Part shown: piece by piece, positions 1,732 to 57,171 of the stretch | Position numbering within the stretch: position 1 is the stretch's first letter | Layout of the letters: each line of letters begins with the position of its first letter | Notes under the pieces: generated by a model | Told to the model about the DNA's origin: nothing | Database searches by the model: none | What the model saw: only the letters and a program-made list of their open reading frames with translations | Position numbers and translations under genes: made by a program | DNA from: Cyanidioschyzon merolae | Taxonomy: Eukaryota | Direction: 5' to 3' (one strand) | NCBI GenBank assembly: GCA_000091205.1 | Contig: AP006496.2 | DNA: 64,000 nt

Positions 1732-4321
1732 ATGCACTGGATGCGTGTTTTGTAAGGAGATTTTGCATAGAACTCGAGGGTATCGGAGAATGCAGACGCT
1801 TACACCAGCATATGCTCCGAGGCTGCCTCGAACAACGTTCGTAACGACGCGATTCGATCCAATTTAGTACAGTCGAGAGAGCAAGCCTGTCCTGCTCGTG
1901 TCGAGCGAGATCGCCGCGTGGAATAGTACTCAGCGCTGCTCTGGATCCTGCCAGTGGATTGCCCACAACTGCCAGAATACGTATTCGCAAAGCGCAGGGA
2001 TCGAGCGACAGATGACTTTGCGGACACCACTTCTCTTGGTGAGTCGGCGCCAGCGATCGGTAAAACTGGTTCCGTTCATGGACAAGGCGGCACGGATACG
2101 CTCGATTTGCGGTCTGGCAAGGAAACGAAACACGCTGTAGTGTCTACGAAGCCAAGTACGTTCAAGGCAGCAGCTTTGTTCGGCCATAGGTTAGAATCGT
2201 TCCATGAGACATGCAGCATGTAACAGAGACTATGAAGCGTGCAAGTGTATTTCTGGACTGCGTGCACACGCCAGAATCGGCATTGGCCGTCAAAAAAGCA
2301 GGCTGAAAGGTATTCTCTGTGTTTCCAAGGACGCATTCGGACTCGTTCAGTAAATCAACGGGCTTCATCGAGAACGCGGACGCAGGACTGGAGGTCGACG
2401 TGCGTACGGATGCGGCAGCGCTATCCGCAGCATCACTTGAACCAGATCTGGAAGGGGCTTGTTGTGAAGTATACCTCTGTTGCTTCACTTGTTGGTATTC
2501 GAGCCATTCGGATGCTCCGTATTTGCTCCGCATCATCAACACCGTGCTGAACGGCTCCCGTGGCGTGTATGTGTCCATGAAAGCGACGCGAGCTCAGAGT
2601 CTCGAGTGCATGTCGAGATCGCACTGCAAATTCCCGTTAAAAGGATGCGACGCTCACCATCAAATGCAGCTTCCAACGATAAATCTCTGTACACGGGTTT
2701 GTGGTGGCAGGTTGTCCCATTGCCGTCCAGATGGGTGCACACCTTCTGAGCAATATGCAGCAGCGTTTGCATATTTTCAATCGGCAAAACGTTTGCATAG
2801 GCCAGCGTTCTCCGATTGTGCGCTCTTTCTTTTCTTACTTTTTTTCAATGTGCGGTGAAGTATCCATCAAACATCCTACCTCCAAGTTACATCACCTATA
2901 CTTCTTCTCGGATATTCTGGTGGTTTTATAAGTTCTATCACTCACCTAATGCGCGCCCTGCTAGTCCGCAAAGGCTCCTGAACCGCTGGAACGGGTTCAC
3001 CACAGTGACAGAACGGCGTTACCGTACCACAGCGGGCGTCGGCTCGAGGCGTGCTTCACCCGACGTAGAATCGGGTCTCATCGTCAGTTTGTGCTCAGTC
3101 AGTCTGCGGATGCAGGCTTGCCTTCGCTGCACGAAACGCTGGAGGAACTTGGCTGTTAGGATGAATTCTGGGAGTCGTCTGTCTCCTTCGTGATCATGCA
3201 TGGAATGCGTTCTTGGTTGGCAATGCGGGTTTGTGCTTGACACCCACCACAGTGGGTAGGCGCAGAGAGCACTGGGCCCGTGTGCGCATCCGATTCGCTG
3301 GACCTTCCGCTTGGAAGGTAGCATGTGAGTTTGTTCGCCACTGATGAGCGCTGAGGCTCGGTTAATGGACCATCAGTTGCCAGTGCTACACTCAGAGTGA
3401 GTGTCCGGCCTTCGTCTATCACGGTGAAGCCCAGCTGCTGCTGTCCTTCAAGGAGCTCGGTTCGCTCCTGTTTCCAGCGCGGGCACTGTAAGCCTAAATA
3501 TGCCAGCGTCTCCGGAATCTCGTCTCGATAGCAGGGACAGTGTTATTCCCAGTGCGATTCCAGTGTTCCTATACGGCTTAGAGACGGTGCTGCTCGCCAG
3601 AAGCCACCGACGCGTATTGTGGCGAGCCACTAGGTACCTCGAGCTAGTCCCGGGAACTCCAGCGCCTCCCACCAGTACGTGCATGAACAGGCTAGGCTGT
3701 AGTTCCGGTACAGAGTCAAGCCGGCGTTGAGGGCGCGACTGGTTCCGTGGCTACGTTCCCATATTGTTGTTTGGACCGTTCGCTTAAGGCGGCGGGAGCC
3801 TTCTATATTTCTGGGGAACGATTGGGGAGCGTGTTTTCGCCTAGGGGGCGCTTCAGCCAAATCTGCGTTGATTTCAACCAAGTGATCTTGCGGTGCATTG
3901 GGGTTTGCATGGATATGCGACTGAACCAGGTGTGCATGGTGGGCCCTTTGGCCCATATACGTGCCCGGTATCCTGCTGCTATCGCTTCTGTCGAGGATTT
4001 CTGGAGTTCAAGTCCGAGTGCCAGGAGGTATCGCGGTCGATACGCGCACCTCCATATCTGGCGGGCATGAAACACCACGCGCATGTCGCCGTTAAAGGGA
4101 AACGTGATCGCGATCTTTAGCGTGTTGCTCTCAAGTACGAGTTGTATTTGCGTTAAAGTCATAGCAGAGTATACTTTACAGTTCAATTATGTTTCAACCT
4201 TCTTAAACATATCAAGGAACCCCACAGGGAAACGTTGCGAGACGCTATCGAAAAACGTGTCGACTCGTACTCGAAGAGTATTGTCAAGGCGTCGTCAGGA
4301 CTGATGCATTTGGCGAGGTAG

Positions 4322-6450
4322 ATGTATCGCGAAGTGGCGCACATGGAAACGGTCGAGATTCCGGACGAGTTTTTCGACAAGACCTTTATTCGTCAGCTGA
4401 TGCTTGGCACAGGGGAAGCGCGGAGGGAAACTCAGATAGTGCATGCCCTCCACGAAAACTTCGCGGAATTCCGCTTCGAAGGTAATCGATACAAGGGTGA
4501 CTCGACTATTTACATATACGGGGCGGTGAAGTACCTCACGAACCTGAGGAACCATTTGACGATGGACCTCGAACATTTTATGATACGCGCCGTGTTCGCT
4601 CTCGACCCGCGCATCTCTCGCAAAGGTGCATAGGCGATGATCAATGGCATCACGAAAGATCGCAAGCGTGAAGATGAGGTCGAATTTGTCGACAAGAAGG
4701 CGTCAAAAGAGTGCGTGAATGAAGCTTCTGTAATCCGTGCGGCTATCCAAGAGCATCGTGCGGTACTGGGGTTTGTTAATCCAACAGAAAAGATATCAGA
4801 GTTGAAAAAAGACAAGGAAAGATACTATCGCCTCGTCCTGCGGTATTTCGTGTTTCTGGACCGAGAGCTCGAACGCAAAGCGGAGACGAAGCTGAGTGAG
4901 GAGAGAAATAAAGAGTGGGAGAGACGGGCGGCTTCGCTCATGGGAAGCGCTTCTACGTGGTTCCAATGTGCAACATCAAGTCACATTTTGTGACGATCGA
5001 CTCCAGCATCCTCTATGGCATCATGAGACAGATCAGTGGGGAGTTCGATGTTAGCAACGGGAAGTTCATCGGTGAAAATCGGGAGATGCACTAGAAGAAT
5101 ACCTTCGAGTTCAAACTTCTCAAAGCGGGCAAGCAAAAGTTGTTCACTGGGATGATCGAAACCGATGGAGTAGCCTTGTGTGTACACGATCCGCGGTTGA
5201 AGAAAGATCGTTCAGTGCCGTCCTCGGCTACGCCCGTGACGAAGGATGCAGAAAACAAAGCGGCGGATCCTGCGACGCAGCAGGTAGAGGATAACGACCT
5301 TGTCGTTGGTACGGCGAAGCATGAAGATGAGAAGGAGGCGGGTCTTGAGACGCAGAAAGTGCAGGATAACGACTTTGTCGTTGGCGCGGCGAAGCATAAA
5401 GATGAGAAGGAGGCGGGTCTTGAAACGCAGAAAGTGCAGGATAACGACTTTGTCGTTGGCGCGGACCCCGGGAACACGAATATCGTAACCATCGCAGCAT
5501 CCACGCCTGGGGAAGATGATACTGACGGTGACTTACGTCAGAGAGACATGCGACTTTTGAGATTCCCGACAACGAGATGCTATCGAGAATCCGGTATAAC
5601 GAATGCAAGGAAGAGAATCGAGATATGGAATGCAGGAGTGAAAGAGCACTTCGAAGCTTTGAGCGAGGTAACGAGCCGCGGAACGGACTTTCGAGCTTTT
5701 CGGGAATTCCTGCAAGTTCGTGTTGCTCATTGGGATGCGCTGTGGAGGAGTATACAAAGCCTCGGTGGGCTCGTTTGCGAATGAACTTGCACTGTGGGAA
5801 GCAGCGTGCATTCGCGAATTTTTTCAATGAGTTGCGTGCCCTGAAGGAGGATGAAAGTCAGAGGCCCGTAGTAGCGTCTTGGGCAGGGCGATGGAAGACC
5901 CAAACAGGGACTACTCCAGCTCCAACGACGAGGGTATGCAAGGAGTGTGCACGGCGTTTCGTTACAATACCGATAGATGAGTTTCGAGCATCGTATACAC
6001 ACCACGAGCTGGGTTGTACACTTCAGAGGGTCGAGATGGAAACGTGTCAGCGGCGCCCTGAGGATACAAAAAGTACGGACCGCTGACGGAAGAGCAAATG
6101 GAAAGGAGGGCGACAGTTCGTGGACTCCTTGCACTAGCGCTTTCTGCAAACAACGGCAAGAAACGTATCGAATCGTGAACGGAGACTTTAACGCCGCTAT
6201 CAATATAAGGAAATGTGCGGTGATGGAAAGAAGACCTCCAGAGTAGACAAGTGAGAACTTTGGGGACAACCTCTCAGCGTGGGACTATATGAGAAAAAGC
6301 TGGAAGCAGTAGTGAGTGGCCGCCCCCAAAAAACCGGGAGGCACCTGCACGACAGTTGGAGGCTTCTTGTCTAGGGCGGGCTTCGCGCCACTATTGTACA
6401 AGGTCGGCATCGTTTTTGTTTTGAAAGGCGGTGGTGGTGTGGTGTGTGTA
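4322..6450 (+). pseudogene. Near full-length TnpB/Fanzor-like RuvC nuclease pseudogene (family 1, copy A), with an in-frame stop at 4634 and frameshifts.
   Basis: About 640 codons run across consecutive ORFs 4322..4633, 4637..4993, 5140..5784, 5577..6086 and 5977..6246. RuvC-I is 'VVGADPGNTNIV' at ~5458-5475. RuvC-II with its zinc ribbon is 'IPIDEFRASYTHHELGC' at ~5970-6015, continued by 'CTSAFC' in the next frame. RuvC-III is 'NGDFNAAINIRKC' at 6184-6207. A 3' non-coding tail at 6250-6450 is conserved with copies B and C. Composition from 4100 to 5100 is more AT-rich than the flanks. Confidence 0.7.
5282..5460 (+). repeat. Tandem repeat of about 60 bp, 2.5 units, inside Fanzor-like copy A.
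   Basis: The translated units are 'KHEDEKEAGLETQKVQDNDFVVGAA', repeated. The last unit ends in the RuvC-I 'NDFVVGADPGN' box. Confidence 0.8.
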
Positions 6451-6502
6451 CGTCCTTTCTGAACCGCCAATTTTTCGATAAAAGCCCGAACTGCGTGAGA
6501 TT

Positions 6503-7339: not shown

Positions 7340-8110
7340 TCTCTCTGGCCTCGTTGCAAGCAGTCGAAGGATGTTGATGGCATCTTTCAACTCCCGACTT
7401 GGTGCTTCCGGCAGTCGTCAACGCATTTGAAACACATGCCAAAAATTGCGATTTATGCCACTAATGTCACTTTCATCTCCATTGTATGCAGCCGCCGTGA
7501 GCTCTTCGCAGCGCTGCCATTGGACGATGGTCCGCTTTTTCCAAATGTCTACGAAGCTTGCCTTTCAGAGGGCCGCTCTGTGGCGCTTGAGCGCTGGCTT
7601 ATGCACGCAGCACGAGTCAGCGACGAGCAAAGAAGGCCCTCTTCGATGCCCTGCGGCCTCTCCGCGTCCGGTGCAGTACCCCAAGATCACGGGCTTCTTC
7701 CAAGCGATCCCCTTGACATGTACTTTGTTCGTCGCGGTCGCAAGCGCACGCTCTTCCATTCGATAGGGGATTCGTGGAATGCGATGATGTTCGTAATGAA
7801 ACACGTACCGGAAGGAGAACCCATGCTCGTGAACAAGTGGAGCGTTTTCGATCCGTCGACGCTCCTCTCATCCGGTTCAATGACACAACTATCGCCCGAA
7901 GCGATTGCTGTGATGACTCGAGTGCAAGCCGAAGATCCTGTTCCATGCAGACAGAAGAGATGAGTGCCTTTGGAAGCATTTCCCAGAACAAATATCGTGC
8001 CTATGTCGAATACAGTTCCGTTAAAGGCCAAAAAAGATGAGGATTGATGTTTCGAACGGAATCGAATATTTGATGGGATACGTTCAGTGCACTTTCGGCA
8101 TGAGCACATG
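7340..8110 (-). mobile_element. TnpB/Fanzor-like relic, family 2 copy 1 (degenerate).
   Basis: The minus-strand ORFs 7687..8109 ('SMGSPSGTCFITNI') and 7565..7804 ('KGIAWKKPVILGYCTGRGEAAG') are homologous to copies at 20.1, 42.1 and 57.2 kb. A RuvC-III-like 'SRELKDAINILRLLATR' box is at ~7349-7399, where the catalytic D is replaced by E. Confidence 0.55.
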
Positions 8111-8600
8111 AAGAACGCATCAAGGGACGATGCCGAACGTTCTTCTTCGTACGTCTAGCGGCGGGAACGGTAGTGCGCCTACCAGTTGCAAAGGAGCCGC
8201 AAAATCGACCACTTGAAGCGCGCAAGATTTGAGCGTGCCACATGAAAGAAAAAGAGAAGCGTCGAAGTTTGCGCGTATGTATTGGTTGATGATGCCCAAT
8301 CGTGTAGGAAAGCTTGTCTCATGGCGTTGCGGATCATCCTGGTGAAGGTAACGTAACGAATACCAGGAACGATGCGTCGAAGGAGCCACTCCGGACAGAC
8401 GACCAAACATCCTAAACCTACGTATGCATCCATTATACCTCATTGCTGTACTTCGAATGTCAAGGCTGCACCTCTAATGAATCGTTCGAACACAAAATCA
8501 AAAGGCAGGAACACACCGATCTGTTCAGTGTTCCGGCTCGATTCGACACCGGCTTGGATGGACGAGCGCGTGATACGCTCGTAACGCCGGGGACTCTCAT

Positions 8601-12464: not shown

Positions 12465-14697
12465 TTGCAGAACCGCTTGTTTGCTCGCGTAAAACATGTA
12501 CACTGACCAAGATCAAAATGCAGGAACGCCAATATCTTCTACGAATTGCCTGGGAGAATCGGTCCCGGTTTCTGTATACAGCGATTCAGGCTTGCTGGAC
12601 GCCTGCTTCGTGGAACCCCAGTGTCTCGCGATCGGCGAGAGTCCAACGCGCTCTCACCCGACCACTGATGTATTTGCATCGCAAGTCTTCGGCAATTCAG
12701 TGCATTACCTAGACTGTGTTCTAAACAATGCCCTCCAAGTCCACGCACCCCAGAGCCGCTAAAAGCCCCGGAGGCATGACATCATCGTCGAAAAATGACC
12801 AAGGTGTTCAAGTCTGTGTCCAGAGAGTGCTTGCGCGCATGGTCGCTGGCGGAATCACACGGAAACGAGCGTCGCTCCATCGATCGCATGGCCATCCGAC
12901 GTTTCCTCATCTTAACGGACATCTTCTGATGCATATGAATTTGTTTGCAATCCCATCTTCCCGATCTATTCCAGGTGCACCTGTGCTCTTTATAAGCGTA
13001 CCTCGTCCGAAACGCATCGGTGTTCGTGGTCCAGAATCGATTCCTGCACCCGTCGCACGTTGTCGTCGAAGGATGCGGCGTGCCGCTTTCGTGCGTGGCA
13101 CTACGTCCAGCGTTATTGGATACCACGAAACGGCGCCTCGTATCGGCGATTTCCATCTTCAATTCATTGCAATGTATCATGGATGCACGCATGTTGCCTC
13201 CTTAGAACCGAGACCTGTGGAGATGTCGGCTCGGTTTCGTGGGCACCCGCCAAAGATCGCCCGCATGAGCCGCTTGGACGCTCATCTACGCTCTCTGAAT
13301 AAAGCCTCCAAAACGTCCCTTCTGCTTGGTAGGGTGCTCAGAGCATGGTGATGTGTTCGGATACCGTCATGCCAACTGTTCGTATTCCTTTTAGCGTTCC
13401 TATGTCCGACGCTCAATCATACAGATCCCTCGACAAACGGAGCAGCTCCAACTGCTTTCCGTTCCTGCGTTTCGCCCCGTGCGCTCGATTTTTCTGTACA
13501 GCAACGACCATGACGATCTTGGACCCGGAATCCGGGCTCACCACGAAGCGTTCCTCTTCAGCTGCCTTGCACGGGTGAAAACGAGTCTCGTTAGATAACT
13601 CAGGCCTTGATTTCAGGAGTTTTACACAGATCATGCAGATGGATATTCTGTCGGTCTCTCAAGTCTTTGCGTACTTCTTTCCATTTTCTGCCCGTCTACG
13701 GGGAACCTTGATCGAGCTCCACCAATGCCCATTGCGAACTTTGTCGAATGCTTCATCGTTGATCACAGGTACCGACTACATCGCTTGTTCTTGCGCGGTA
13801 TGCTGCTATAGATGTCGCCTCTAGACTTCATACCCGCTTACTTCCGGTTAGTTCAGACGCACTGGATGCGCAGCAACACAGAATCACGTCTTTTCTATGT
13901 ATTTACCCACCATTCCTCGACTACAATTCATTCACCCTCTACGTCGTGAGCACGCTCACGGGCAGAAGCGAACCTTTCTGCCCCGGCCCGAGCTCGAGTA
14001 GAGAAGCGGCGTACCTGTCCAATGGTGCTGAAGGTAGAGAACAACTCGAGTAGAAACATGCGAGTTTCAAAACGGTGTTCGATAACAGACAAGACACCTG
14101 CGACTGCACTTACCTGGATCGACAGAACTTCTACACTAGCCAGGCATCGCCGATTCCGCGATTATCGTCGGTATCGCGGAGCGTGTCTCTCGTTCTTCGT
14201 ACGACATTCAAGCTCCGTAACCCATACTTATCCATGGAGATTCTGGCCATTCCGTACGTTTCATCGTGCTTCAAACCTGCCGTGAACGTCCGTCATAGCA
14301 CTTGTGGCGCCGGTGCGCACGCTACATGGAACAGAGCAGTGTTGTTTTGGACTGTACTGATGTAGGGCGAATAGGCTGGCCCAGGGAGCAGCTCAACGCC
14401 AATCTCAGCTGCATAATCCCTCGGCCGCTTTTGAGTGATGCAACCCGAAGTCGTCCATGACCAGGACAGAATCGTGTCGGCAGGAGAATCAGCGAGCAGT
14501 ACTGCGATGAAGGATGCAGTGTTTTACCATACTGCCGCTCTGGCGACGAACAGACGACCGCATGATTGCATCGTCGCTCGGGAAGCTGTTGTGGACGCGC
14601 GCGCATGGCCGCCTCTGTACGAAGAGCGGTTTGCCCCTACTGGAGTTCCCCTGCAAACGCCTGTCATGTCAAGTCTCGTCGAGTGAGCCGAACACGT

Positions 14698-18761: not shown

Positions 18762-20129
18762 GCTTGGCTCGAACGTGCGCACCAGTGCACCGCGTAGAGA
18801 AGACGGGCCCAGCTGAAGCCTATGTCCTCTGAATTGACCAATGAACCTCCAAAACAGTCAATTGACGCGAGAGAAATTCTCGCTAGCTTCACCACAAGCA
18901 AGAATGTTGAGCGTTCCGCCCACACCTGCCGAGACGGTGGAACCAATGGAACCACGCGGACGCTACAGTTTCTTCAAAATACGAGCGCTCTATCCAAAGG
19001 GAGCAGCTAACCACGCCGTATCCGTCTAAAAGCGCAAGTTTCGTGCCAAAGCCTCCGTAGCACGCGTTCGTAGCCTATATCGTTCCTGGTGCAACCTGAA
19101 GCTCCGGGGATTGTTTCGTGCGATCGGCACCGGATCGTTCACGCCCGAGGCGAGCGGCCGAGGACGCTTCATTCTGCGAACATGAAAATCGAAAAGTGCC
19201 GTGCCGCAACGCTCAGGATTCGCTGGAAGGCACACCTGGACGCTTCCATCGGTTAGCAAAGAAATAGACTCGACACAGGTGTCGGTGAAGAAGCTGACGG
19301 TGCTTTCGTATGCACAGGCTGCGCTCAGACGTACCGACACACGCGTCGTACTATCGTGGAACACTGAGATACAGGCTCTGTTCTATGCTTGAGATTTTTA
19401 CGAACATGTTTCTCGATGTACATCCTCAATTTTTGACGTACAACAAAAAGGATTAATGAATGCAAGTTTAGTTTGGGATTATTGATTGTCAGTTCGGAAT
19501 GGCTCATTCGACGCGTTCCCGCTGGAGTTCGTGACGATCCGAGACTACAGATGATTCGTGACGCTCTCCAACAAGAGCTCCTAAACTAATCGATATAGAC
19601 ATCCAATGCATACGTAAAGGCCTGCACGCTCGTCCTTTCCTGACGTATACCATGCTCAAATCATGCACTATTCAAATTTCTGGTCTCGCTGTTTCAACGC
19701 AACGCGCGGGAACAGCAAATCGCGCTGCAGTATTGACGAGGAAAAGAATCCGACGACGAGCCCTGACAGCTTCCTCATATACGCTTATGCCGTAAGTTCC
19801 ATGAATTTGTCGCATCAAGTGATCGACTCCGTTCGATAGACAAATTCTCATCGCTTTGCGGCCTTCGGCGAAACTGGACTCGACAGCAGCATGATACCTC
19901 GCATGGGATATGTTTCCAGAGACGGCAGGCTCTTCTGCTCACACGGGAATGGGTGTTAGGCTCGGACTTCAGTCACCGCAGTGATCGCTTCTGGTGGAAG
20001 GTGCGCCAACGCTCGGCATGATGGGTGCCTAGGCGGGTCGAAAGCTGTTGCCTTCTCCGCCAGCTTGGATTCTCCTTCCCGAACTTGTATCATTATGGTC
20101 ATCGTCGCTTTCCGTAAATCCTCTATCGA

Positions 20130-20900
20130 ATGAGACTGTGTGCACTTGCGTGCGCAGCAGACGGAATACTCGCAGAGGGCATCACCCAGAAGAAGCCCGT
20201 CACCATAGGGTACGGCACCCAGCACGGAAACGAAGGAGCGCATCGTGACGAGCTTTTCGTACCCGTCATCGGCACGTACCGAGTGATGAAGGGAATGTTC
20301 ACGTGGAGCAGAGCAGACCTCGGAGAATCAGGTACGGTGGACATATCCGAACAACTGGCTACACGCAGGAGTCGCTGCTGTAAAGCGTGCACTGAGACGA
20401 AACGCAAAAAAGATGAAAATGAGAAGTGAGGCGTCGATCGCAACGACCGTCTGGGCATGAAATGCGTGCAAAACGTACACAAGTAGCGAAACTGGGACTT
20501 AAACGCTACCGTACATATCCGTTGACAGCGGACAATGGAACATGAGGGATTGGTGAGACCGTCGTCGCATTGAAAGCTGATCACGAGAGAGAGAGGAACA
20601 AGATGCGGTTGCAGAAAAAATCTCGTAGAGGCTGGTGTTGATGAAAATGAGAAGCGTCCCAAACTTGAGGGTTTCCATCCGAACGAGTATCCCGGTTCAG
20701 CGTTATTCTGACATGGGCGTGAAAACATCAGAGCATGGCTCTGGTCCCTGCAATGCATCATGCCGCCTCTGTTACGGTCCGCTTCGCTCTGGTATGCTCG
20801 AGTGCGATATCCACTAATGGCAGTGGTCTCGCGCGCCTGCTCAGCGCACGGAACTCGACTGCGCATGAGCCGCAGCGTTTCGCGCACCGGACTTGCACTG
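20130..20900 (+). mobile_element. TnpB/Fanzor-like relic, family 2 copy 2.
   Basis: ORF 20130..20429 'GITQKKPVTIGYGTQHGNEG...VDISEQLATRRSRCCKACTE' carries the RuvC-II E and a CxxC. The RuvC-III box 'WDLNATVHIR' (D at ~20486) is immediately followed by a stop. The downstream tail 'tctgacatgggcgtg' is shared with copy 3. It lies immediately 3' of the helicase gene. Confidence 0.6.
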
Positions 20901-20944: not shown

Positions 20945-23900
20945 CTAATGGTCGAGCGTGTTCAGTGCCGTGCCTGCCAGCGACGGCGGCAGCGGCTCGC
21001 AATGCTCCAGAACTCGTCGCCATATGGGATTCGAGGTCAATGTGAGTCGATGGCCAGTAATGATGAGGTGATGACTGGCCCGAGTGAGCGCGACGTTCAC
21101 ACGTTCCAGCGAATCCAGTAGTTGTCGACCCTGAGACCGGCAGCTGCAAACCGTCGAGAGCACAATCAGCTTGCGCTCGCCGCCTTGAAAAGCATCGATG
21201 GTGCTGATCTTGACGGATGCCATACTCCAGCGACTGGATTCGATTTTCGCTGCCGATATCCGAGGCCTGTGCCCCAATTCGGCGTTGTCCGAGGCGTTTG
21301 CAAGGTGTTGGATAATGGCGGCTTGGGCCCGATACAAACAGATAACCCCCACTTGTGTGGGTTCCATGGCAGAGCACCGCGCGATTCGCTGGAGAAAACG
21401 CACAATCCATTGCGCTTCCACGCGATTGAAACGACTCTTATCCAGGCTAGCTTCGTCATGACCATCGATTGGCACAAAAGTAACCGGGGCGAGCCTGGGC
21501 ACCGCCGCTGGAAATGCGGTAATCGGGTACGCGCTTCGTACGGCGCCTCCATAGGCGAGCTCGGATGCGATCTGAGCAATCTGGGGATGGCATCTGAACT
21601 GCACAGTGAGATATAGGTTCAGTACATCGGCTCGTTCACCGAGGCGCTTCAACAGCGACCTACTTATGCAGCACTGGTCGGGAACGTCTTCCGAGGACCT
21701 GCCGCTCATCAATGGGGGCAGTTGTCGCTCGTCGCCGGCGATCACGACAAAGACGTGATCGGCGCCGAGTTCTAGAATGGGTGCCAGAGCAAGCGGCTCC
21801 ATGATCTGCGAGGCCTCATCAACGAGAACGACATCGAAGCGGAGTCCGTGCAGAATGGCCTGCGTTGCAGAAGCGCAGGTAACACCGACTACTGATCGAC
21901 TCCGAAACGCTTCTCGACTTGCTTTCTCAACTGTTTCAGAATCCAGTTCTTCAGCTGGTGCTCGTAGATCGAGACATGAGTCGCGTCTTCGCTGCGGACA
22001 TAGCTTCGTCGAGGTTGCATTCCCTGTGAAACAGATCTGCGGGGCGCTGACGAGCTTCATCAGGCCGGTGCGGCATCCACTTCCCGACACGCGTTTCCGC
22101 AGCGCCGACATTGATTGCTCCACCTGCGTGCTGTCTCGAGGAGACGGAAATTCACCGTCCACGGGGGCGACGGTGGGCGCCTCATGCGACATAGCTTGAG
22201 CGATATTCGTTCCAGCAGACGCTGGATGGACCTGCATGGAGTCTCGTCCATTGTCTACTGTCGCTCGACGGAAGCGTTTCTTGAATCCCTTTAGTGTGAA
22301 TTCGCACACACTTGGATGCATTCGCCCTTCGTTACCCGCGCGAGCAAAGTCCTTGAAGCCGCGCTGCAACAGCCCAAGTAGAATATTGTCGACGGCGACA
22401 TTGGTACCAGCAGCAACGAGGATACGAAGCGATGGTTGTTGCTCTAACATTGCCAGGATGCTCTCCACCAAGGTTCGGGTCTTGCCAGTGCCAAACGCTC
22501 CGTGCACGGCAACCAAATGAGGTCGATCAACGCCTCTCGCTTGCGAGTCCTTGCTTCTAATGAGAGCGACGCCGTTCAAACACGCCTGGATGACTTGTTG
22601 TTGTTGTTGTTGTTGTTCCAAGTTCCAAGCGGATGAAACGGTTTCCAACCGCTGGTGCTGCGCAGCGCATGCTGACGCCAGCTCTGTTGGAACGCCACCA
22701 CTGCTAGGACATGGCGAGTCGAGCGAAAAGAGCGTGCGCTGCCGTCCCTCAAGCTGAACAGCGGGATCGGAAGAAGGCTTTGAATCGGAACGTGTACCCG
22801 GTTCGGCACTCGACGGCACAAGTGGAATGTCAGCATTTGCAAATGGTTGCCCGCCGCAACTTTCTAGCGACTTTTGATCCTCATTCCGAAGAGGGACTTG
22901 CTGGAGACAATCATTTTGCGCTTGTGGCTGCTTGGTATTGGTGGTTGCTACCGGAGAACCGACGAGCTGGCGCAAGACATGGAGCCGCCCGAACGGCTCC
23001 TCGTTCAAAAACGCGTCTAAACACAGCAGCTCTGTGGGCAAGCATGCGCAGCACATGACGAGAACGCTACAAGGCTGCTTTCGCCATATACGACGGTTGC
23101 AGCGTCCTAGCGGCTGGACCTCCAAGAGGCCGGATACCGTCGAAACGCCATGGTACAGGGAGCGCACCAACGTAACTCCATCAGCGACTGCGGATGAATG
23201 TTCGCTACGGAAATGCTCCCGCCAAGCTGTGCGCGTTCCGAGGGCCCAGAGCGCGTCACGGTCCAGGCAAGTGGCGAATTCATCGAGTCTGCTCTCGGGT
23301 CGAAAGCGCAGAAAGTACTTCGTACCGGGAACCAGTTGATCGTCCGGCGGTTGTTTGGTTTCGTCATGCAAGCCATGGCGAGTTCGCTGGGCGTTTTTGG
23401 CTGTTCGCGACATCACAGCGAAACTTTCAACGCCATGTCGCACGATGAGAGCAGAACCTTGCCGATGCGGAAGTGCAATATGTGCATATGCAGGCTGTTT
23501 TGAGGAATGGTCCAGAAGTTGCTCGCAGGCGCGTTCCAGAACTTCAGCCTGAGCATCAAGCTGCTTTTGTATCTGTGCAGCAAGCAAAAGGAGCATCTCT
23601 TGACGGTATGCGGGAATCGAGTTCCATGTATTGGTTGTTTGGAGCGATACTTGAGTACTCGAAGACGATCCAGCTGGCTTGCGGCCACCGGGACACAGCT
23701 CGCCAACATCCGCAGTTTCCTTGCGACTCGAAGCGCTCCTGCGCGGGAACGTGAGCGTCAGATCCTGCGCATTCGTGATCTGCCGGCTAGCGCTGCTGCG
23801 ATGTCTCACCGAAACACCGACGCTGTCGATTGCTCCCGAGGAAGGGAGACACGTTGCAAGTCGCGGATGCGACGCGCTGACCCGAAACCGAGGCGGCTCT

Positions 23901-24886
23901 GTAGACGCGTCAGCGTCTTTTGCAAACGCGCTAGGGCCGATACCGCAGCCGCTTACCTGGGGACGTGTAAAACACGAGCCCTGGGGTGCTCCCGCTGTCC
24001 CGGACGCATCGAGCGGGCTATCCTCTGCCAACATGGACAGGAGTTGCTCGTCGCTTAGCTGGACTCGGGGGCAACGCTTCCCATTCTCAATCATGTTTTG
24101 CGGTCCCTGCATTGGTGCCGAGTCCTCATGCGCACTGCCCCCTTTGACCGCACCAACCGACGCACCAGCTTTGTGGTTTGTTGATGACTTTGGCCTTGAA
24201 AACTGCGCCGCGGTTTTCGAAGCCTGCACGCTACGTTCTCGCTGGTCCAGGTCTAGCCCTGTGCTCGACAACGATTGTGCATTGTCGAAGCATGACTGTC
24301 GCCACGCGGGACCTGGAGGCACACGTTCGTATGGTTCCGCGTGCGACTCGCCGGCGCTCCGAGCGCTATTTATTGAATTTGGCAACCGGCCAAGCCTCCG
24401 TAAACCGGTCACCCCGAGAGGTCGACGGGTGCTGTTCGCCGGTCTGACTGTACCTTGAAGCCCCGTCTGTAAGCTTTCACCGTCACTTGACGCTGCACGC
24501 GGTGACAGGCTATCCCGAAGAGCTGGCGGCGCTTGTTTGCAGTCCTCCTCGACTGACTCCACGGGCTCCAGAACCTGCACCAAGATCTGGTTACCGAGCG
24601 AGAAAACCTCGCCGCTAACGTCAATTTTCGTCCTTGGCACCGTCTCGCTGAACACTGTACGTCTCCTTTGATGTGCACGACTCGCACACGCGCTGGAGCT
24701 CGACTCGGGAGACTCGTCCGTAGGCACTGTTTCATCTAACAGCTGCAACCGAACGCGAGCCTCGTTGCCCGGCACCGCACTGCTTTGAAGAATACCGTCC
24801 TTCCAGCGTTTGGACTTGCGATGAACATCGAACGAATAAAGCACAGACCAGCGTTGTGGTCCCGCAGAAGTCAGCCGCGTGGGCAT
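20945..24886 (-). CDS. UPF1-like superfamily-1 helicase (AAA_11/AAA_12 type) with a ~700-aa low-complexity N-terminal region.
   Basis: Motif I is 'GAFGTGKTRT', Ia is 'VAAGTNVAVDNIL', II is 'VLVDEASQIME', III is 'VIAGDERQLPPL', IV is 'QFRCHPQIAQIA', V is 'IDAFQGGERKLIVLSTV', and VI is 'RVNVALTRASHHLIITG'. This is not the Pif1/Helitron type. The track start at 25012 is TTG; the first ATG is at 24886. Confidence 0.85.
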   Translation of the reverse strand: MPTRLTSAGPQRWSVLYSFDVHRKSKRWKDGILQSSAVPGNEARVRLQLLDETVPTDESPESSSSACASRAHQRRRTVFSETVPRTKIDVSGEVFSLGNQILVQVLEPVESVEEDCKQAPPALRDSLSPRAASSDGESLQTGLQGTVRPANSTRRPLGVTGLRRLGRLPNSINSARSAGESHAEPYERVPPGPAWRQSCFDNAQSLSSTGLDLDQRERSVQASKTAAQFSRPKSSTNHKAGASVGAVKGGSAHEDSAPMQGPQNMIENGKRCPRVQLSDEQLLSMLAEDSPLDASGTAGAPQGSCFTRPQVSGCGIGPSAFAKDADASTEPPRFRVSASHPRLATCLPSSGAIDSVGVSVRHRSSASRQITNAQDLTLTFPRRSASSRKETADVGELCPGGRKPAGSSSSTQVSLQTTNTWNSIPAYRQEMLLLLAAQIQKQLDAQAEVLERACEQLLDHSSKQPAYAHIALPHRQGSALIVRHGVESFAVMSRTAKNAQRTRHGLHDETKQPPDDQLVPGTKYFLRFRPESRLDEFATCLDRDALWALGTRTAWREHFRSEHSSAVADGVTLVRSLYHGVSTVSGLLEVQPLGRCNRRIWRKQPCSVLVMCCACLPTELLCLDAFLNEEPFGRLHVLRQLVGSPVATTNTKQPQAQNDCLQQVPLRNEDQKSLESCGGQPFANADIPLVPSSAEPGTRSDSKPSSDPAVQLEGRQRTLFSLDSPCPSSGGVPTELASACAAQHQRLETVSSAWNLEQQQQQQQVIQACLNGVALIRSKDSQARGVDRPHLVAVHGAFGTGKTRTLVESILAMLEQQPSLRILVAAGTNVAVDNILLGLLQRGFKDFARAGNEGRMHPSVCEFTLKGFKKRFRRATVDNGRDSMQVHPASAGTNIAQAMSHEAPTVAPVDGEFPSPRDSTQVEQSMSALRKRVSGSGCRTGLMKLVSAPQICFTGNATSTKLCPQRRRDSCLDLRAPAEELDSETVEKASREAFRSRSVVGVTCASATQAILHGLRFDVVLVDEASQIMEPLALAPILELGADHVFVVIAGDERQLPPLMSGRSSEDVPDQCCISRSLLKRLGERADVLNLYLTVQFRCHPQIAQIASELAYGGAVRSAYPITAFPAAVPRLAPVTFVPIDGHDEASLDKSRFNRVEAQWIVRFLQRIARCSAMEPTQVGVICLYRAQAAIIQHLANASDNAELGHRPRISAAKIESSRWSMASVKISTIDAFQGGERKLIVLSTVCSCRSQGRQLLDSLERVNVALTRASHHLIITGHRLTLTSNPIWRRVLEHCEPLPPSLAGTALNTLDH
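22595..22616. repeat. (TTG)n microsatellite, encoding poly-Q on the minus strand within the helicase.
   Basis: ttgttgttgttgttgttgttg. Confidence 0.9.
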
Positions 24887-24949
24887 GCACGCGCGGAGCA
24901 GACAAGACAGCAACGCTGCATGCACGCATGCATTCCCGCCATTGCCAGG

Positions 24950-25560
24950 CGACTGGTGACGTCGTTTCGCTTCGATGCGTGGCGTTGTCCATAAAATGAT
25001 GCAATGTTTCAAAAGTTACATCTTCTATGCGTACGCATGCCCGAGGGGCATACGTGTTCCGTGGAGCAGTGCCCGAGCATGGCGGCGGGTGCTCCATATA
25101 CATGTCCGTAAAACTTGAAATGTTCTACGACCACGACGGGTATGCGTACATTTTTACGCGCTTACGCCTCTTAGCTTTTCTGACCGGCATTCTGCTATCG
25201 GTTTCAGCTTCTCCTTGCACAGTTCGAGCCTGACAGGCTGCCAAGTGAAGCAGGAATTGTGTCAGCTCCTCGGGTCTCGTCTTCAGCACCGCACATCGTA
25301 TGATATTGATGACGGCGTTGAAGTCTCGCTTCACCAACTCCTTGCGTTTATTGCCTCTGGTTGAACTCACCAATGCAAGGATTGCTAGAACTCGTGCTCT
25401 CTGTGCCGTTTGCTGCAGTGTCAGCGCTGCGCTGCCTTCTCTCCATCACGATCTTCTGCAGTGTACATCCCAGCACATCCCTTACATATTTTGATTCTTC
25501 AAATGTACGCACTTCTTTATGCCCGTAGGTAAGGAATTCCCCTGAAAGAGAAGGACTGGT
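24950..25560 (-). mobile_element. TnpB/Fanzor-like 3' fragment, family 1 copy B.
   Basis: Minus ORF 25125..25373 carries 'KRDFNAVINIIRCAVLKTRPEELTQ' (RuvC-III). The upstream frame 'EVRTFEESKYVRDVLGCTLQKIVMERRQR' is homologous to copy A 'IDEFRASYTHHELGCTLQRVEMETCQRR'. The 3' tail at 24950-25125 aligns with copy C (for example 'cgatgtgcggtgctga.gacgagacccg.ggagctgac'). It sits within 70 bp of the helicase start codon. Confidence 0.65.
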
Positions 25561-26188
25561 GGCAGAAACAGGTCATGCGCCCTGGTGTGTCACCGTGTGC
25601 TGAACGCATCAGCGATTCGCCCAGTGCAGCGATGTTTACGTTTCACGATGGAAAACATACACTGAATGGGCATGAACCACGGAGTGTACGGCGGAATGAA
25701 AATCAGCACTATCCCCGCCAGAATTTGCAAAAACCCCGAACTTAACGGTAATCTAGAAATGCCACGTGGTCCTTTAGAAGAGCGTCGTCATACGGCATCG
25801 AAAATTCTCCAATGATTCGACAAAGAACGTGCTGTTGTATCAGCCTTGCCTGTGAGCGAAACTGAGGCCGCCAAGTGGATCCGCTCCACCTGGACCAGAC
25901 GATGATTTCCGAGTTCTCCTCACGTTCGATTGTACATACAACGGAACACCCTGCTCCGCGAATACCCGTATACGCTCCAACCGTCTCATCCGATGAAAGT
26001 CTCATCAACTGAAAAAACAAACCGACTTGCCTGTGCTTCATACCGATGGTTGAGTTCTGTGAATTCTGTTGTTGCGGATTCGGCGGAAGCTGTGCTTTCG
26101 TGAACCTGGACTTTATTGCGCCCGGATCCCAGTGTTTTGAGGGTCAAACGAACAATCTGTTGAGAAACAGAGACGCTTGTGGGAACTA

Positions 26189-26461
26189 TTATCGTCGCTC
26201 TTTGCCTTCCGCAAAGAGATCGATCGGTTGTTTTTCTACCGTAGACCGCAAAAAGTCTTTAAAAATATCGGTTTTTGGCACTAAACTCCTTTCTTCTTTC
26301 ACTGTTCCTAAACTATCCGCGTACCGTGGTACGACTGACCTGAAGGAGGAGCGCAGTCCTTCTTCCACTGTCCAGAAAAGAATATATATACTACAAGCGA
26401 TTCGTCTACGATGTATACGATACTTTGCATCGTGATTTCGATAGCCTCCTACGTGCCACAC
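26189..26461 (-). mobile_element. Fragment related to a Tc1/mariner-type transposase N-terminal HTH.
   Basis: 'VPKTDIFKDFLRSTVEKQPIDLFAEGKER' is homologous to 'APKTDILKECLREMVENDPSFTLRKAKT' in the ORF at 31734..32132. Confidence 0.35.
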
Positions 26462-26700
26462 TCTGGGTGAAACAGACTTGCGTTGAAAGATTATGAAAAC
26501 CCATGCAGCCTAGCAGGCAGGTCGGAGTACGTAAATGAATCATATTGTTCCGTTCACAATGCAACGAGTCGCGCAGTCGGCTGCGGGCGGACGAATCGCG
26601 TACCGCGAGCCACGTTGTATGAAGCGGTGTCTGTCTTCGCACTGAAGTCGACGTCGATACTGCTTCTCCGGACGCTCGCTTCAACGCGATCCGGGAGAAG

Positions 26701-27255
26701 ATGCGGCCTCTTACAGAGGACCAGACTCGCCTCGTTTTCGAAAAACTTGCCCGATATATGGGGAAGAATATAAAGCTGCTGTTAGATCGACCCGATGAGG
26801 AGCACTGCTTCCGTTTACACAAGAACCGGGTGTACTACGCGCCGGTACGTCTGATCCGCCAGGCAACTCGCGTGCCGAAGGACGATTTGATTTGTTTCGG
26901 CGTTTGTGTAGGCAAGTTCACGCATTCTGGCAAGTTCCGCGTCGAAGTGACGTTTTTGGACTATCTTGGCAACTATGCACTAGGAAAAGTCTGGCTGAAA
27001 AAGAGTTCCGAAATGAGTTTTCTCTATGGGAACCACGTTGTCAAAGGCGGCGTGGCCCGTTTCACCGAGGGTGCAGTCAAGAACCAAGCTGTGGTCGTGT
27101 ACAACGAGGACGATATTCCTCTTGGTTTCGGGGTCATGGCCCGGTCTGTTGTTGAGTGCGGCATGGCAGGTCCCGAAGACCTTGTTGTTCTGAACCAGGC
27201 GGACCTGGGGATGTATTTGCGCGAAGAGGGGACGCTCTCCGCTGCAGCCTCCTAG
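26701..27255 (+). CDS. NIP7: 60S ribosome subunit biogenesis protein NIP7.
   Basis: It aligns along its full length with NIP7: 'MRPLTEDQTRLVFEKLARYMGKNIKLLLDRPDEEHCFRLHKNRVYY...SFLYGNHVVKGGVARFTEG...VVVYNEDDIPLGFGVMA' (PUA domain). It is 184 aa with an ATG start. Confidence 0.92.
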   Translation: MRPLTEDQTRLVFEKLARYMGKNIKLLLDRPDEEHCFRLHKNRVYYAPVRLIRQATRVPKDDLICFGVCVGKFTHSGKFRVEVTFLDYLGNYALGKVWLKKSSEMSFLYGNHVVKGGVARFTEGAVKNQAVVVYNEDDIPLGFGVMARSVVECGMAGPEDLVVLNQADLGMYLREEGTLSAAAS

Positions 27256-31620: not shown

Positions 31621-31733
31621 CACCGCAGCCGTCTACAAGATGCGCGCGCGCGAGCGACGCTCGACACATCTTTCAACTCAATTTTGTTTCACCCTAGCTG
31701 CGGTGGTGAGCAGGAGCTCGAAATCACGATGCA

Positions 31734-32132
31734 ATGTACCCTGTAGATTGTAGAAGAGTTGCCAGTAGGATATACTCTTTACTGCATAGTTCAAGGAGGA
31801 CTGCGTCTCTTCTTCAGGTTAGTCATACCACAGTACTACGCTGGTTGAGGAACACGGAAAGGAAGAAGTATAAGCGCTCTGCGCCTAAAACCGATATTCT
31901 CAAAGAGTGCCTGCGGGAAATGGTAGAAAACGACCCATCTTTTACCTTGCGGAAAGCAAAAACGACGATAGAGGCCACCATAGGCGTATCTGTTTCTCAC
32001 CAGCTTGTTCGTGTGGTCCTGAAATCACTGGGATACCGTCGCAGAAAAGTCCGACTTCACCCACGACCAACTTCCACCGAACTCGCAACAACAGCGTCTC
32101 TGGAAAGTCGCTATCGATATGAAGCCGAGTGA
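31734..32132 (+). mobile_element. Tc1/mariner-type transposase fragment with only the N-terminal HTH DNA-binding region; no DDE domain follows.
   Basis: 'SHTTVLRWLRNTERKKYKRSAPKTDILKECLREMVENDPSFTLRKAKTTIEATIGVSVSHQLVRVVLKSLGYRRRKVRLHPRP' follows the Tc1-like paired/HTH pattern (compare 'KIAAELNS.GIKVSVSTVKRVLHRHGLRGCRARKKP'). Confidence 0.45.
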
Positions 32133-32812
32133 CGCTGGTGTGTTTTCTCAGTCGATAAGACTTGCTTCGGGTGAAACGGGCGGCGCGTATACGGGTATGC
32201 GCGGAGCAGGGCGCTCGTTGTACGTCTGGTGAAGCTCGAAGAGAACGGAGATATCATCATCCGTTCTATCTGGAATGGATTCATTTGGCAGCCTCAGTTT
32301 TGGCTCCTAGAGAAGACTTACAGAACAGCACCAACCATATTATCGAATCATTGAAGACTTTTCCCTGACGTCTGGTGATGTCCTTCTATCAGACAACGTG
32401 GTATTTCACCATTCGCAATGTGTTCAAGCTTGTGCGGATGATATCTGGGAACAGAGTCGCTCTTCATTCCTTCGTACTGTACGTGTTTCGGCTTCATCAA
32501 AAGAGAGTTTTCTATCGCGGAACGTTAGGATCGCACCACTCGGCGAATCGCTGAAGCGTTCTGCGCAAGGTGACACACCGGGGCACATAACCTCTTGCTT
32601 CCACCAGTCCTTCGCGCTCCGGGAAGGTCGTCACCTCAGGCCATAAACCAGTGCCTTCATGTTCATAAATAAAAAATCTATGGGAAAGTTACGTGCATAA
32701 AAGTCGAGGATGCTGGCGACCCGCTGGGTCCCGCGGCAACTCCTGCGTTCCTGCGAATTTGCGCTCTCGATGCAAGTCAGATAGGTTTTCCTTTGTAGGC
32801 ACGTTCCAAAGA

Positions 32813-41899: not shown

Positions 41900-42600
41900 T
41901 TCGCATAGGCACACTCACACGAGAATGAAACCGAACAGGTCTACGGACTCGGGCGTACACACGCCAAAGCCTGGCTCTCTTCCCAGTGGTACGAATAACA
42001 ACCCGTGCGGGCTTTTTCGGCGACTGCTTCTTTCTTGCTTTACTCTGTCTCGACCGCTCTGTTGTCAACAGTCGAGGGATACTCATGGCTGCGTTCAAGT
42101 CCCTGGGACGATGTTTCTGGCTGTTGTCGACACATTTCACGCACGATGTAAGTCGGGCGCTGCGCTTTGCTTGCCATATATTCACCTTGTTTATGTGCAG
42201 CCTTGATGCGCTCTTTGTAACAGTGACAATTGAGTGCGATCAGGTGTTCTTGTCTATCCATAACACGTCGTGCTGCGAGTTCCGCGCTGTGGCTCGTGAA
42301 CACCGGCTTCATCGCTCGGTTCGTGCACTTGCGCGGTACATGAGGCATATTCCGATGCACTCCTCCGTTTCCAAACCGGCTGCAGTACGCTACGATCACA
42401 TAGTTCTGCTGGATGATCGCCTCGATTACTTCGCTGTCCGCAGCACGCGCAAATGCAAACTGTTCCATTCGATGAAGGATTTGTGAAACGTGACGTTCAT
42501 GATCATGAAAAAAAGTACCGGAAGGAAAATCCAGGTTAGGGAGAAATTCGGGTAATCTAGATCCATTTGCGCTCTTTTCATGCAAACCAGTGACACAGTC
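41900..42600 (-). mobile_element. TnpB/Fanzor-like relic, family 2 copy 4.
   Basis: Minus ORF 42040..42585 'DFPSGTFF...VIEAIIQQNYVIVAYCSRFGNGG...QEHLIALNCHCYKERIKA' has the RuvC-II E and the first CxxC. Overlapping ORF 41517..42185 begins 'LTSCVKCVDNSQKHRPRDLNAAMSIPRLL', which carries the second CxxC immediately before the RuvC-III RDLNAA box. This is the canonical TnpB C-terminal architecture split over two frames. Confidence 0.65.
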
Positions 42601-43458
42601 CGTACTGGACGCGATTGCTGCGATGACTCTAGTCCGAATCCAAGACGCTTTTCATGCAGACGTAAGCAGTGCGGGCCTCTGGGAACAGATCCCGATGACA
42701 GGTATTGTTTTGCTGTTGAATGCGGTTTCGTCGATGGTCACGAAGCGATGGGGATTCTTCTTTAGCACGGAATCGACGATTTGTAGTGACAATCTCAGTG
42801 GACTTTCAGTGTGATCTTATGACTAATTCCTCAACAAACGCCATCGAGCACTTTTCGCTGTCAATGCAACCGCGTCAATAAATGCACCAACGAATCACCA
42901 TGAAACTTAACGATCGAAAACTTGAAGAATACGTGATTTGGGTTTCATACACGTAAGCATTCGAGAATCATGGAGGTTTCTACATACATATTGCATCGCG
43001 ATATCGGTTGTTCGACGAAACCCATCTTCGAGAGCGTCTCGAATCATCTTGATTCCGTTAACGAAACGTATTGCTGCGGCGAGAAGAACGAAGTCGAGAG
43101 AGCCACCCCATATAGACGATCGCGAGTCCCAAAACTACGTACGATGTCGATAGCCTTTATTGCTGTACTTCGAATATCAAGGATGTATATCAAAAAAGAC
43201 AGGAAAAATGGAAAAGGAGGAACAGAGCGAGCACGTCCCTGTTCCATTTTCGTCCACGACGGCTGGAGGACTGGGTATACGAACAGCGCTTTGCGATGAC
43301 GCGTCAGGTAGGTAACCCTGGAAAACAACTTGATGCGCCTACAACTTGCGTGAGCACTTGCTGAAAGCCATATTTTACTGAAGGCTGAATCAACGGACCC
43401 TGCAGATGAGTTTACGTCGACGTGACTGCGAGCCCGCGCAACCAGCACTAGCGGGCCG

Positions 43459-47839: not shown

Positions 47840-48529
47840 ATGACAAGCACAGGAATGCCCGATCAGCACATTTGTATGCATTTGTGCAGTTTTACTGCGA
47901 AAAGCAGAGTCAGCGTCATGCCACATTGGAGCTGGCTCGTGAGCGAGCCCAGGAAACGACGGGAAACGCGGCACCAGTTGGCGACTACGAAACGGTGCCG
48001 GAGGCACTACGGAGGCGTCCCTGCAGTCCAGCTCGGCTGCAGTGTGCGATCCAAGGCACCGAGTCTGCGGTATCGAATGCACGTACGGCGGCTTCTCATG
48101 AACGCGTTCCTCTATAATCATTGACCTGGTCCATTGGAACGAATCTAGGAAGCAGGGAACGGCTCGAAAGGCGCATCGACGTAATTAGACGAGTCTATGT
48201 CAATGCCAGAGGCAGTGCGGGATCGACGTCGCGGTCCTTTACGGCGTACGAGGTACGCCCCTCACCGTGATGCATTGCATGGTACGCAACGGCATCCAGA
48301 GCCACACCTGGATGGCCGGATTGAGTCCAGTTCTGCGATGTACCGAAGGTTTACACGCAGGACATGCGGGCATCGCCCGTTCTAGACATTGTGTAGCCTT
48401 GCGGTGCCGCCAAAGGCTGACGCCGGCGATACGCGCTGCTTCTTTAGGGTCGTATGGATTGTTCGACATCCGCGCTGATGCTCCAGATGGAAGCTGTGCC
48501 AGACCTGGTGGTGAACCCTTAAACCATCG

Positions 48530-48823
48530 GAAGCGGCGCTTCGGTTGCTTGCCGGACAGACGGCAGCATTCACGTATTTGGAAGCGTTCATTGAAACGCA
48601 ATGATTCTTCACGCTAAAAAAGTATCAGAAGCGGCGCTGCGGTTGCTTGCCGGACAGACGGCAGCATTCACGTATTTGGGAGCGTTCATTGAAACGCAAT
48701 GATTCTTCACGCTAAAAAAGTATCAGAAGCGGCGCTGCGGTTGCTTGCCGGACAGACGGCAGCATTCACGTATTTGGGAGCGTTCATTGAAACGCAATGA
48801 TTCTTCACGCTAAAAAAGTATCA
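48530..48823. repeat. Tandem repeat of a 98-bp unit, 3 copies.
   Basis: The unit 'gaagcggcgctgcggttgcttgccggacagacggcagcattcacgtatttgggagcgttcattgaaacgcaatgattcttcacgctaaaaaagtatca' begins at ~48530, 48628 and 48726 with 2 mismatches. A fourth unit diverges at 48824. Confidence 0.85.
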
Positions 48824-50150: not shown

Positions 50151-50199
50151 CTTGAAAGGCGTGTCGCTCTTGCTGGTAGCGAATGCCTGCGTGGCTGCT

Positions 50200-57077: not shown

Positions 57078-57171
57078 AGGCTTCCATCATTCCTTTCTGG
57101 ATGGAAACGCTTTTTGGAGTCTGACTTGAGTCATCAAGTAGATCGCTTTAAGTAGAACGTGCCTCACTGAT

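Follow-up and report, generated by a model that had tools for sequence, protein, structure and literature searches.

A conserved tail past the stop codon of a decayed Fanzor1 transposon family is a candidate scaffold for its guide RNA

Among the closest described systems, the guide (omega) RNA of the Fanzor1 nuclease SpuFz1 combines two stems with a 6-nt linker, after which comes a variable guide of 14-15 nt, and its distal stem 2 is dispensable (PMC10432273). In three Fanzor1 structures, stem-loop 1 (SL1) is the conserved, protein-bound part of the RNA; sequence further on "may not be constrained" (PMC11423790). Other Fanzors bind RNAs from the 3' non-coding region that abuts the right end of the element (PMC10530073). 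In Cyanidioschyzon merolae, which is a red alga, the transposon CMe-1A is present in ~150 copies of ~3 kb which are ~80% identical to their consensus; it is without terminal inverted repeats or recognizable target-site duplications, and its 5' 635 bp is common to another repeat (Bao & Jurka 2013, PMC3627910). Here we analyzed a 64,000-nt stretch of contig AP006496.2 (hereafter the window), which carries decayed copies (A, B and C; Table 1) of a repeat family, family 1, whose protein is placed in Fanzor1 by profile matches. An initial annotation had proposed that conserved non-coding sequence, a candidate omega RNA scaffold or else a transposon end, follows the RuvC-III box of this nuclease. 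The similarity between the copies is real, but it had been misplaced and mislabeled: the supposed core is coding, and the conserved non-coding tail starts at the true stop codon. This tail probably encodes the omega RNA scaffold.

Assignment of the protein to Fanzor1 came from a family profile of 44 diverse members, drawn from a search that yielded 1,380 relatives (many of them 600-700 aa). The profile matched PpFz1 of Parasitella (9cf0; E = 3.4e-17), SpuFz1 of Spizellomyces (8gkh; E = 5.5e-11) and GtFz1 of Guillardia (9cer; E = 8e-6), and the catalytic triad was invariant in the 44-sequence alignment: D314 (in G.DPG), E486 (in DEFRT) and D555 (in RD.NAA.NI). Single-sequence searches of the PDB returned E = 0.16 or nothing, and Pfam and a close-homologue profile gave no usable matches; a sub-threshold Pfam match to PF07282 (TNB) was seen in one relative. 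Copy A keeps GADPGN, DEFRAS and DFNAAINI despite its broken open reading frame (ORF), and its repaired translation retrieved 188 proteins, all from JGI/ENA metagenomes, with 48-79% identity among the matches listed. Inside the copy A ORF, a 75-nt coding repeat (5240-5464) forms a D/E/K-rich block, the copy number of which varies among homologues. Unlike SpuFz1 and PpFz1, which end at RP..L.R, the family-1 protein has ~40 extra C-terminal residues beyond this motif.

Pattern search, self-blastn and local alignment agreed that sequence 3' of the RuvC-III box is common to the copies, as had been claimed. The pattern cgatgtgcggtgNtgaNgacgagaccc occurs exactly twice in the window, at 25298-25272 (minus strand) and 49932-49958 (plus strand), versus 0 occurrences expected. 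Self-blastn of the window aligned copies B and C (25359-25156 with 49871-50073; 75% identity over 209 nt, E = 1e-31), and local alignment joined copies A and C (6287-6430 with 50007-50161) with a score of 51 versus 16.4 +/- 2.2 for shuffles. The box itself reads DFNAAINI in copy A (6184-6207) and DVNAAVHI in copy C (49905-49928).

However, the part of this similarity that had been described as a non-coding core after the stop turned out to be protein-coding. The core, cgatgtgcggtg...gacgagaccc...gatagcag...ccgccgaaaaagaccaggaggcgtccgcacgt, encodes RCAVL.TRP...IAG...RRKRPGGVRT, and in A, B and C alike its translation is the family protein's C-terminal ~60 residues (tblastn of the family C-terminus: E = 2e-14 for C, 3e-12 for A and 6e-8 for B). 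In copy A the tblastn match comes in two pieces, 6178-6297 (63% identity) and 6264-6371 (72% identity, the piece with E = 3e-12), and the ancestral stop, TAG, follows at 6372-6374; in copy C the ancestral stop has mutated to TAC (50094-50096). Homologues that include the C-terminal end run past the RuvC-III box as ...DFNAAINIRRCAVLETRPPEWTRENFVGQPLKVELYEKKLEAVVGGRSKKTGRRLHVSWRRFV and then stop; metagenomic homologues have this stretch unbroken, and the window copies have it disrupted. Moreover, among 31 distinct copies, identity along the ORF was 0.67-0.80 at third codon positions versus 0.79-0.93 at first and second positions, with the excess variation at third positions extending through the last 65 codons except the final ~10. 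Since intact homologues read through the core and third codon positions vary more, the core is the last ~60 codons of the Fanzor1 ORF, broken in the window copies.

For copy B, a tail had been assigned to 24950-25125. The reverse complement of this interval scored 16 against A and 16 against C (shuffles, 15.4 and 16.2 respectively), and no match to it was found by the tail covariance model introduced below (filters off) or by nhmmer. The interval was rejected as part of the element because its alignment to A and C is no better than that of shuffles. The similarity of copy B to its relatives ends at 25156, ~7 codons ahead of the stop position. A 1355-codon open ORF with helicase-like motifs recognized by eye (20945-25012, minus strand) overlaps 24950-25125 with its 5' end.

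Taken as a whole, the proposal of a non-coding RNA after the stop that contains this core, and that includes 24950-25125 as its copy B version, is barely tenable. The core string is common to B and C and weaker in A, omega RNA overlaps the 3' end of the ORF in some systems (GtFz1, by 17 codons, and ISDra2 TnpB), and conservation at third positions rises slightly in the last 180 nt (0.78-0.80), all of which would suit it. On the other hand, the core is coding, 24950-25125 is unrelated to the other copies, and the RNAalifold consensus for the ORF end plus tail is weak (-7.9 kcal/mol), with hardly any covariation. Its coordinates and the non-coding label of its core are refuted by these data.

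Over the last ~10 codons of the ORF (RRLHVSWRRFV; 6340-6374 in the window, and the equivalent position in the loci), the three codon positions are equally conserved (0.81, 0.84 and 0.80), and a palindrome within these codons, AGACG-TTT-CGTCT, ends at the stop codon. Given this palindrome and the equal conservation of codon positions, the RNA may start inside the ORF.

Past the true stop lies a tail which is non-coding and conserved. Relatives of the element are numerous in metagenome contigs, in which 420 related stretches were found, and 80 related loci were fetched for comparison. Directly after ...RRFV (...HVSWRRFV), 52 of 67 loci have a stop, TAG or TAA, and a common tail follows with the consensus GGCG-loop-CGCC, ACTACTGTAC, AC(Y)G..GG CGTCGTTCGA CTT TCGAACGGCG TT(T)GGTG. 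Counted from the true stop, the tail is ~72-80 nt long (6375-6440 in copy A; for copy C see Table 1), and is made up, in this order, of a short stem-loop (GGCG/CGCC), the conserved linker ACUACUGUAC and a hairpin that is long and variable. A covariance model of 33 metagenome tails, from which the window sequences were excluded, located the tail just past the ORF end and on the sense strand in 76 of the 80 loci; four further matches of the model in these loci, of which one is on the minus strand, belong to neighboring copies or fragments. In the window the model recovered the tails of copy A (6369-6440; 67.3 bits, E = 7e-19) and copy C (50091-50171; 21.8 bits, E = 6e-5), the latter being found by nhmmer as well (E = 1e-6). 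No tail was detected in or near copy B by the covariance model with its filters off or by nhmmer. A model match at 59839-59914 (plus strand; 9 bits, E = 0.48) was taken as chance.

Pairwise similarity of distinct copies stops between +70 and +87 nt past the ORF, just after the hairpin; column identity is 0.74 from +1 to +30, 0.61 from +31 to +60 and 0.32, about random, from +61 to +90. Among 53 distinct tails, including both window copies, the base composition of the flank is random from ~+2 past the model end. Defined by the loss of between-copy similarity, as had been suggested, the element thus ends right after the long hairpin. The idea of a guide RNA scaffold or transposon end at the 3' end of the nuclease gene holds once it is relocated past the true stop, but not for the quoted core, which is coding, nor for copy B, whose assigned interval is unrelated and which has no tail.

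Three metagenome loci depart from the usual arrangement: L005:120-229 is a solo 3' fragment with ~40 nt of ORF end plus the tail and without the nuclease gene, L012:685-800 has the linker and stem-loop 2 tandemly duplicated, and L058:260-328 represents a subfamily with tails ending ...TTCCAGGGG(T/C)G.

The tail resembles the published Fanzor1 scaffolds in several respects: i) it lies 3' of the nuclease gene and abuts the right end of the element; ii) its length, 72-80 nt, compares with ~75 nt for the omega RNA scaffold of SpuFz1/PpFz1; iii) the order is the same, in that stem-loop 1, which is short, leads through a short single-stranded linker to the long stem-loop 2, and a variable flank, the guide in the known systems, follows directly; iv) stem-loop 1 and the linker are conserved in both, and the distal stem-loop 2 is variable or dispensable. 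The likeness is one of layout, and no similarity of RNA sequence is claimed. Because position, size, order of elements and gradient of constraint are the same as in the published scaffold, the tail probably encodes the omega RNA scaffold of the family-1 Fanzor; by the same analogy it would also be the right end of the element, and the adjacent flank the guide. As with SpuFz1 and PpFz1, the tail would be expressed as RNA, bound by the protein and act as guide. Transcription would continue past the element's 3' end into flanking DNA. The RuvC/TNB face of the protein would bind stem-loop 1 (GGCG/CGCC) together with the linker ACUACUGUAC, the long stem-loop 2 would be a largely dispensable spacer, and ~15-20 nt of flank directly after stem-loop 2 would serve as guide.

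A similar arrangement is found outside Fanzor1. The omega RNA of ISDra2 TnpB (right-end element RNA, of the IS200/IS605 group) is likewise encoded where the nuclease gene ends, stops at the right end of the element and draws its guide from the flank (as family 1 would, by analogy). It differs in its extensive overlap with the ORF and in its pseudoknot; in family 1 the conserved structured part of the tail begins with the stop codon and is made of two simple stems. Copy C and L005:120-229, which keep the tail without a nuclease gene, recall the "ghost" omega RNA loci of S. punctatus and the standalone fRNA (Fanzor RNA) copies of C. reinhardtii. Unlike copy C, which is 5'-truncated and has a decayed tail, the ghost loci are bounded by inverted repeats and well conserved.

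Conservation within the tail is strongly heterogeneous. In the 53 distinct copies, mean column identity was 0.94 and 0.89 in the two stem strands of stem-loop 1 and 0.85 in the linker, 0.55 in the loop of stem-loop 1, 0.49-0.72 in stem-loop 2 and 0.27 in the flank; the stems of stem-loop 1 and the linker are thereby conserved at or above the level of non-synonymous sites. Good folds are confined to the best-preserved copies, which form stem-loop 1, linker and long stem-loop 2 (z = -4.5, -3.8 and -3.0). Copy A of the window retains this two-stem layout (z = -1.7), and the copy C tail has lost it, its fold being no better than that of shuffles (z = +1.2). Folding favors the sense strand over the antisense (-24.3 versus -19.6 kcal/mol; 44 of 55 copies), and the fold contains many G-U pairs. 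Variants of stem-loop 2 all stay paired (CGTTCGA/TCGAACG, ACGTTTTTC/GAAAAACGT, ACGTCTTTC/GAAAGACGT and a quite different version in L003). A basal helix, CAC(C) after the linker with (G)GUG near the end, is present in 30 of 40 tails versus ~18 in controls, and it ends between -7 and +10 nt from the model end.

Two further pairings were considered and dropped after reading by eye. In L073 the coding sequence AAAGTCGAAC (KVEL) could pair with the 5' arm of stem-loop 2, but subfamilies with alternative arms would not pair. For a pairing of the UAG stop with CUA in the linker, the alignment showed a compensating change in 1 of ~12 copies with a TAA stop.

The covariation check that had been recommended for the tail gave a divided answer. 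On the alignment fitted to the covariance model, 13 pairs had changed on both sides versus 7.8 +/- 1.8 in shuffles (4 of 500 shuffles reached 13), and 76% of cells were paired versus 35-56% when partners were slid. On a structure-blind MAFFT alignment, covariation was not above shuffles, and RNAalifold on the tail yielded the invariant 4-bp stem only. The register of stem-loop 2 differs between subfamilies, which explains both the non-significant covariation on the MAFFT alignment and why RNAalifold is uninformative and keeps just this stem. Thus support from covariation is modest, and the evidence for a conserved sense-strand structure is real, at a moderate level.

Several results weigh against the scaffold interpretation. 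The model-fitted alignment itself leans to structure, and kinship of the sequences may inflate the measures taken from it, alongside the nulls on the MAFFT alignment and with RNAalifold just described. The mean fold z over all copies is -1.1, and hairpin chimeras made by swapping halves between copies cost ~2 kcal/mol only. Averaged over its length, conservation of the tail is no better than that of third codon positions (~0.75). No Rfam family reached its gathering score anywhere in the window, and a scan of 6100-6500 gave nothing at E <= 1. Pseudogenes make up nearly all of the sampled copies, among which no open stretch exceeds 606 aa, and conservation therefore reflects past master copies. 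An AlphaFold model from a shallow alignment was unusable (predicted local distance difference test score, 34). At the level of the element, comparison of the tail with the left region revealed no terminal repeats, inverted or direct, above shuffles, and the left end, target-site duplication and target-adjacent motif were not readable from boundary comparison of copies.

Some of these results would be expected if the tail were a functionless 3' untranslated remnant, alignable through common descent, with hairpins that are inherited palindromes: its identity of 0.74 and then 0.61 does not exceed that of third codon positions, most copies are dead, the mean fold z is low and MAFFT covariation is non-significant. 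Such a remnant should not, however, be so unevenly conserved (0.85-0.94 in stems and linker versus 0.55 in loops), have both-side pair changes in excess of shuffles, keep several distinct variants of stem-loop 2 paired and coincide in layout with the experimentally determined Fanzor1 scaffold, and we consider it distinctly unlikely.

The tail could instead be the right end of the element at the DNA level only, i.e., a cis-acting site, possibly a strand-specific single-stranded DNA hairpin, which the machinery that moves the element would recognize, with no RNA role. We hold this alternative unlikely. It would fit a tail that ends exactly where between-copy similarity ends and whose terminal feature is a long hairpin, in an unclassified element without terminal inverted repeats (PMC3627910), the 5'-truncated copies of which (copy C and L005:120-229) keep the 3' end. 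But in characterized TnpB and Fanzor systems the right end is omega RNA scaffold sequence, so that an RNA role is compatible with these same features; the most conserved parts, stem-loop 1 and the linker, lie ~45-65 nt inside the end and are not the terminal nucleotides; and the abundant G-U pairs favor RNA, or at least one strand. A Helitron-type 3' end (hairpin plus CTRR) was also considered, and no such terminus was present.

The family as a whole is consistent with a known type of element. Its copies are many, old and roughly 75-85% identical, and the element measures ~2.4-3.1 kb. A common left boundary lies at ~4029 of the window, upstream of which at least three different 5' modules occur (compared with L010, L021, L027, L015 and others); window 3316-4029 is 90% identical to L010:1-713. 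No inverted copy of the tail was found upstream of the ORFs in the 80 loci, and hence there is no pointer to terminal inverted repeats. SpuFz1, in contrast, has 30-nt inverted repeats and a CA/CATA left-end motif, neither of which was found for family 1. An intact NIP7 gene near copy B (26701-27255, plus strand) shares 86-87% identity with its counterparts in Cyanidiococcus yangmingshanensis and a close NCBI relative, and 70% with that of Cyanidium caldarium; its exact protein was matched in JGI metagenomes only. Both a eukaryotic host (NIP7) and a multi-copy transposon context (the 420 metagenome stretches, and the 3-4 copies given by a family-profile search of the window) are thereby indicated. 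Judged from these matches, family 1 belongs to a Cyanidioschyzon-type red alga and is a Fanzor1 transposon family of old age whose copies are mostly dead.

Family 1 is very likely CMe-1A or a close relative, a match made by published description only. Both come from a Cyanidioschyzon-type red alga and have a Fanzor1 ORF, a length of ~3 kb and numerous old copies; both are without terminal inverted repeats or target-site duplications, and both have a modular 5' region common to other repeats. The multiple 5' modules seen here recall the published 5' module common to CMe-1A and TE-N2_CMe. Unlike the present analysis, the 2013 paper predates omega RNAs and describes no 3' tail.

How such an element spreads invites a bolder conjecture. 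IS200/IS605 elements carry a TnpA Y1 transposase as well as defined hairpins at their left and right ends; for family 1 a transposase gene was not identified, though no systematic search was made. The lack of terminal inverted repeats and of an identified transposase, together with a sense-strand-specific structured 3' end that is the element's sole conserved non-coding feature and is kept by 5'-truncated copies, raises the idea that the tail does more than provide a homing guide, and that the Fanzor protein and the 3' RNA (or single-stranded DNA) end alone might suffice for spread, by RNA-primed or 3'-end-primed copying, in a thermoacidophilic red alga. We regard this as highly improbable; if true, it would provide a compact, possibly heat- and acid-tolerant Fanzor1/omega RNA pair.

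Table 1. Coordinates of family-1 copies, their parts and the interval of the initial annotation in the window
Feature	Position	Strand	Description	Basis
Copy A	~4030-6440	+	Near full-length, decayed, tail present
Copy A ORF	4196-6374	+	Fanzor1, with frameshifts and stops	Profile hmmsearch in six frames, tblastn, three-frame reading
Copy A C-terminal ~55 codons	6208-6371	+	"Tail" of the initial annotation; RKCAVMERRPPE*TSENF...LEAVVSGRPQKTGRHLHDSWRLLV; one stop and one frameshift inside
Copy A stem-loop 1	6375-6389	+	GGCG-GGCTTCG-CGCC	Covariance model, fold
Copy A linker	6390-6399	+	Single-stranded; ACTATTGTAC (family consensus ACTACTGTAC)	Alignments
Copy A stem-loop 2	6400-6440	+	Long hairpin; ends where between-copy similarity ends
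Copy A 3' flank	6441-6460	+	Candidate guide segment; start +/-7 nt	Analogy with 14-15-nt guide of SpuFz1
Interval of the initial annotation	24950-25125	-	Unrelated to the element; overlaps upstream region and 5' end of helicase-like ORF
Copy B	25156-25572	-	Internal/C-terminal ORF fragment; box DFNAVINI at 25325-25302; no tail
Copy C, whole	49860-50171	+	Last ~75 codons plus tail, ~310 nt
Copy C ORF part	49860-50096	+	5'-truncated, last ~75 codons; internal stops	tblastn; profile match 49905-49979
Copy C tail	50097-50171	+	Decayed; insertion in stem-loop 1	Covariance model, nhmmer

Other repeats of the window were recorded alongside these copies. A second, decayed Fanzor1-like remnant at 12974-13658 (minus strand) is far more divergent, with 26-30% identity to family 1 and profile E-values of 6e-5 to 2e-3 per fragment. 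Directly upstream of the copy B fragment, a dispersed repeat of ~1 kb (25478-26491, minus strand) is 70% identical to 31668-32685 (plus strand) and occurs also in metagenome loci L063, L058, L069 and L078. Tandem repeats comprise a 98-nt unit in three overlapping copies upstream of copy C (48526-48829) and a 123-nt unit in two copies (56832-57077). The initial annotation had also reported a second nuclease family, family 2, with a shared sequence downstream of the box. Its repeats are real (19432-20720, 57120-57881, 7644-8457 and 42448-42807; 64-74% identity) and the shared 14-mer TCTGACATGGGYGT is present at 20707 and 57868, but the Fanzor1 family profile gave no match to these repeats at E <= 1.

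The transposon and its protein have been known in kind since 2013 (CMe-1A), while the omega-RNA-like tail of the family was not described in the literature searched, and the current understanding of Fanzor biology is unchanged by it. The locus illustrates that decayed ORFs can pass for conserved non-coding sequence, and the candidate scaffold has been relocated accordingly. If the tail is confirmed as omega RNA, it would give Cyanidioschyzon-type Fanzor1 a compact, SpuFz1-like scaffold of ~75 nt, and coming from a host lineage of hot, acidic springs it may be of interest for robust small genome editors.

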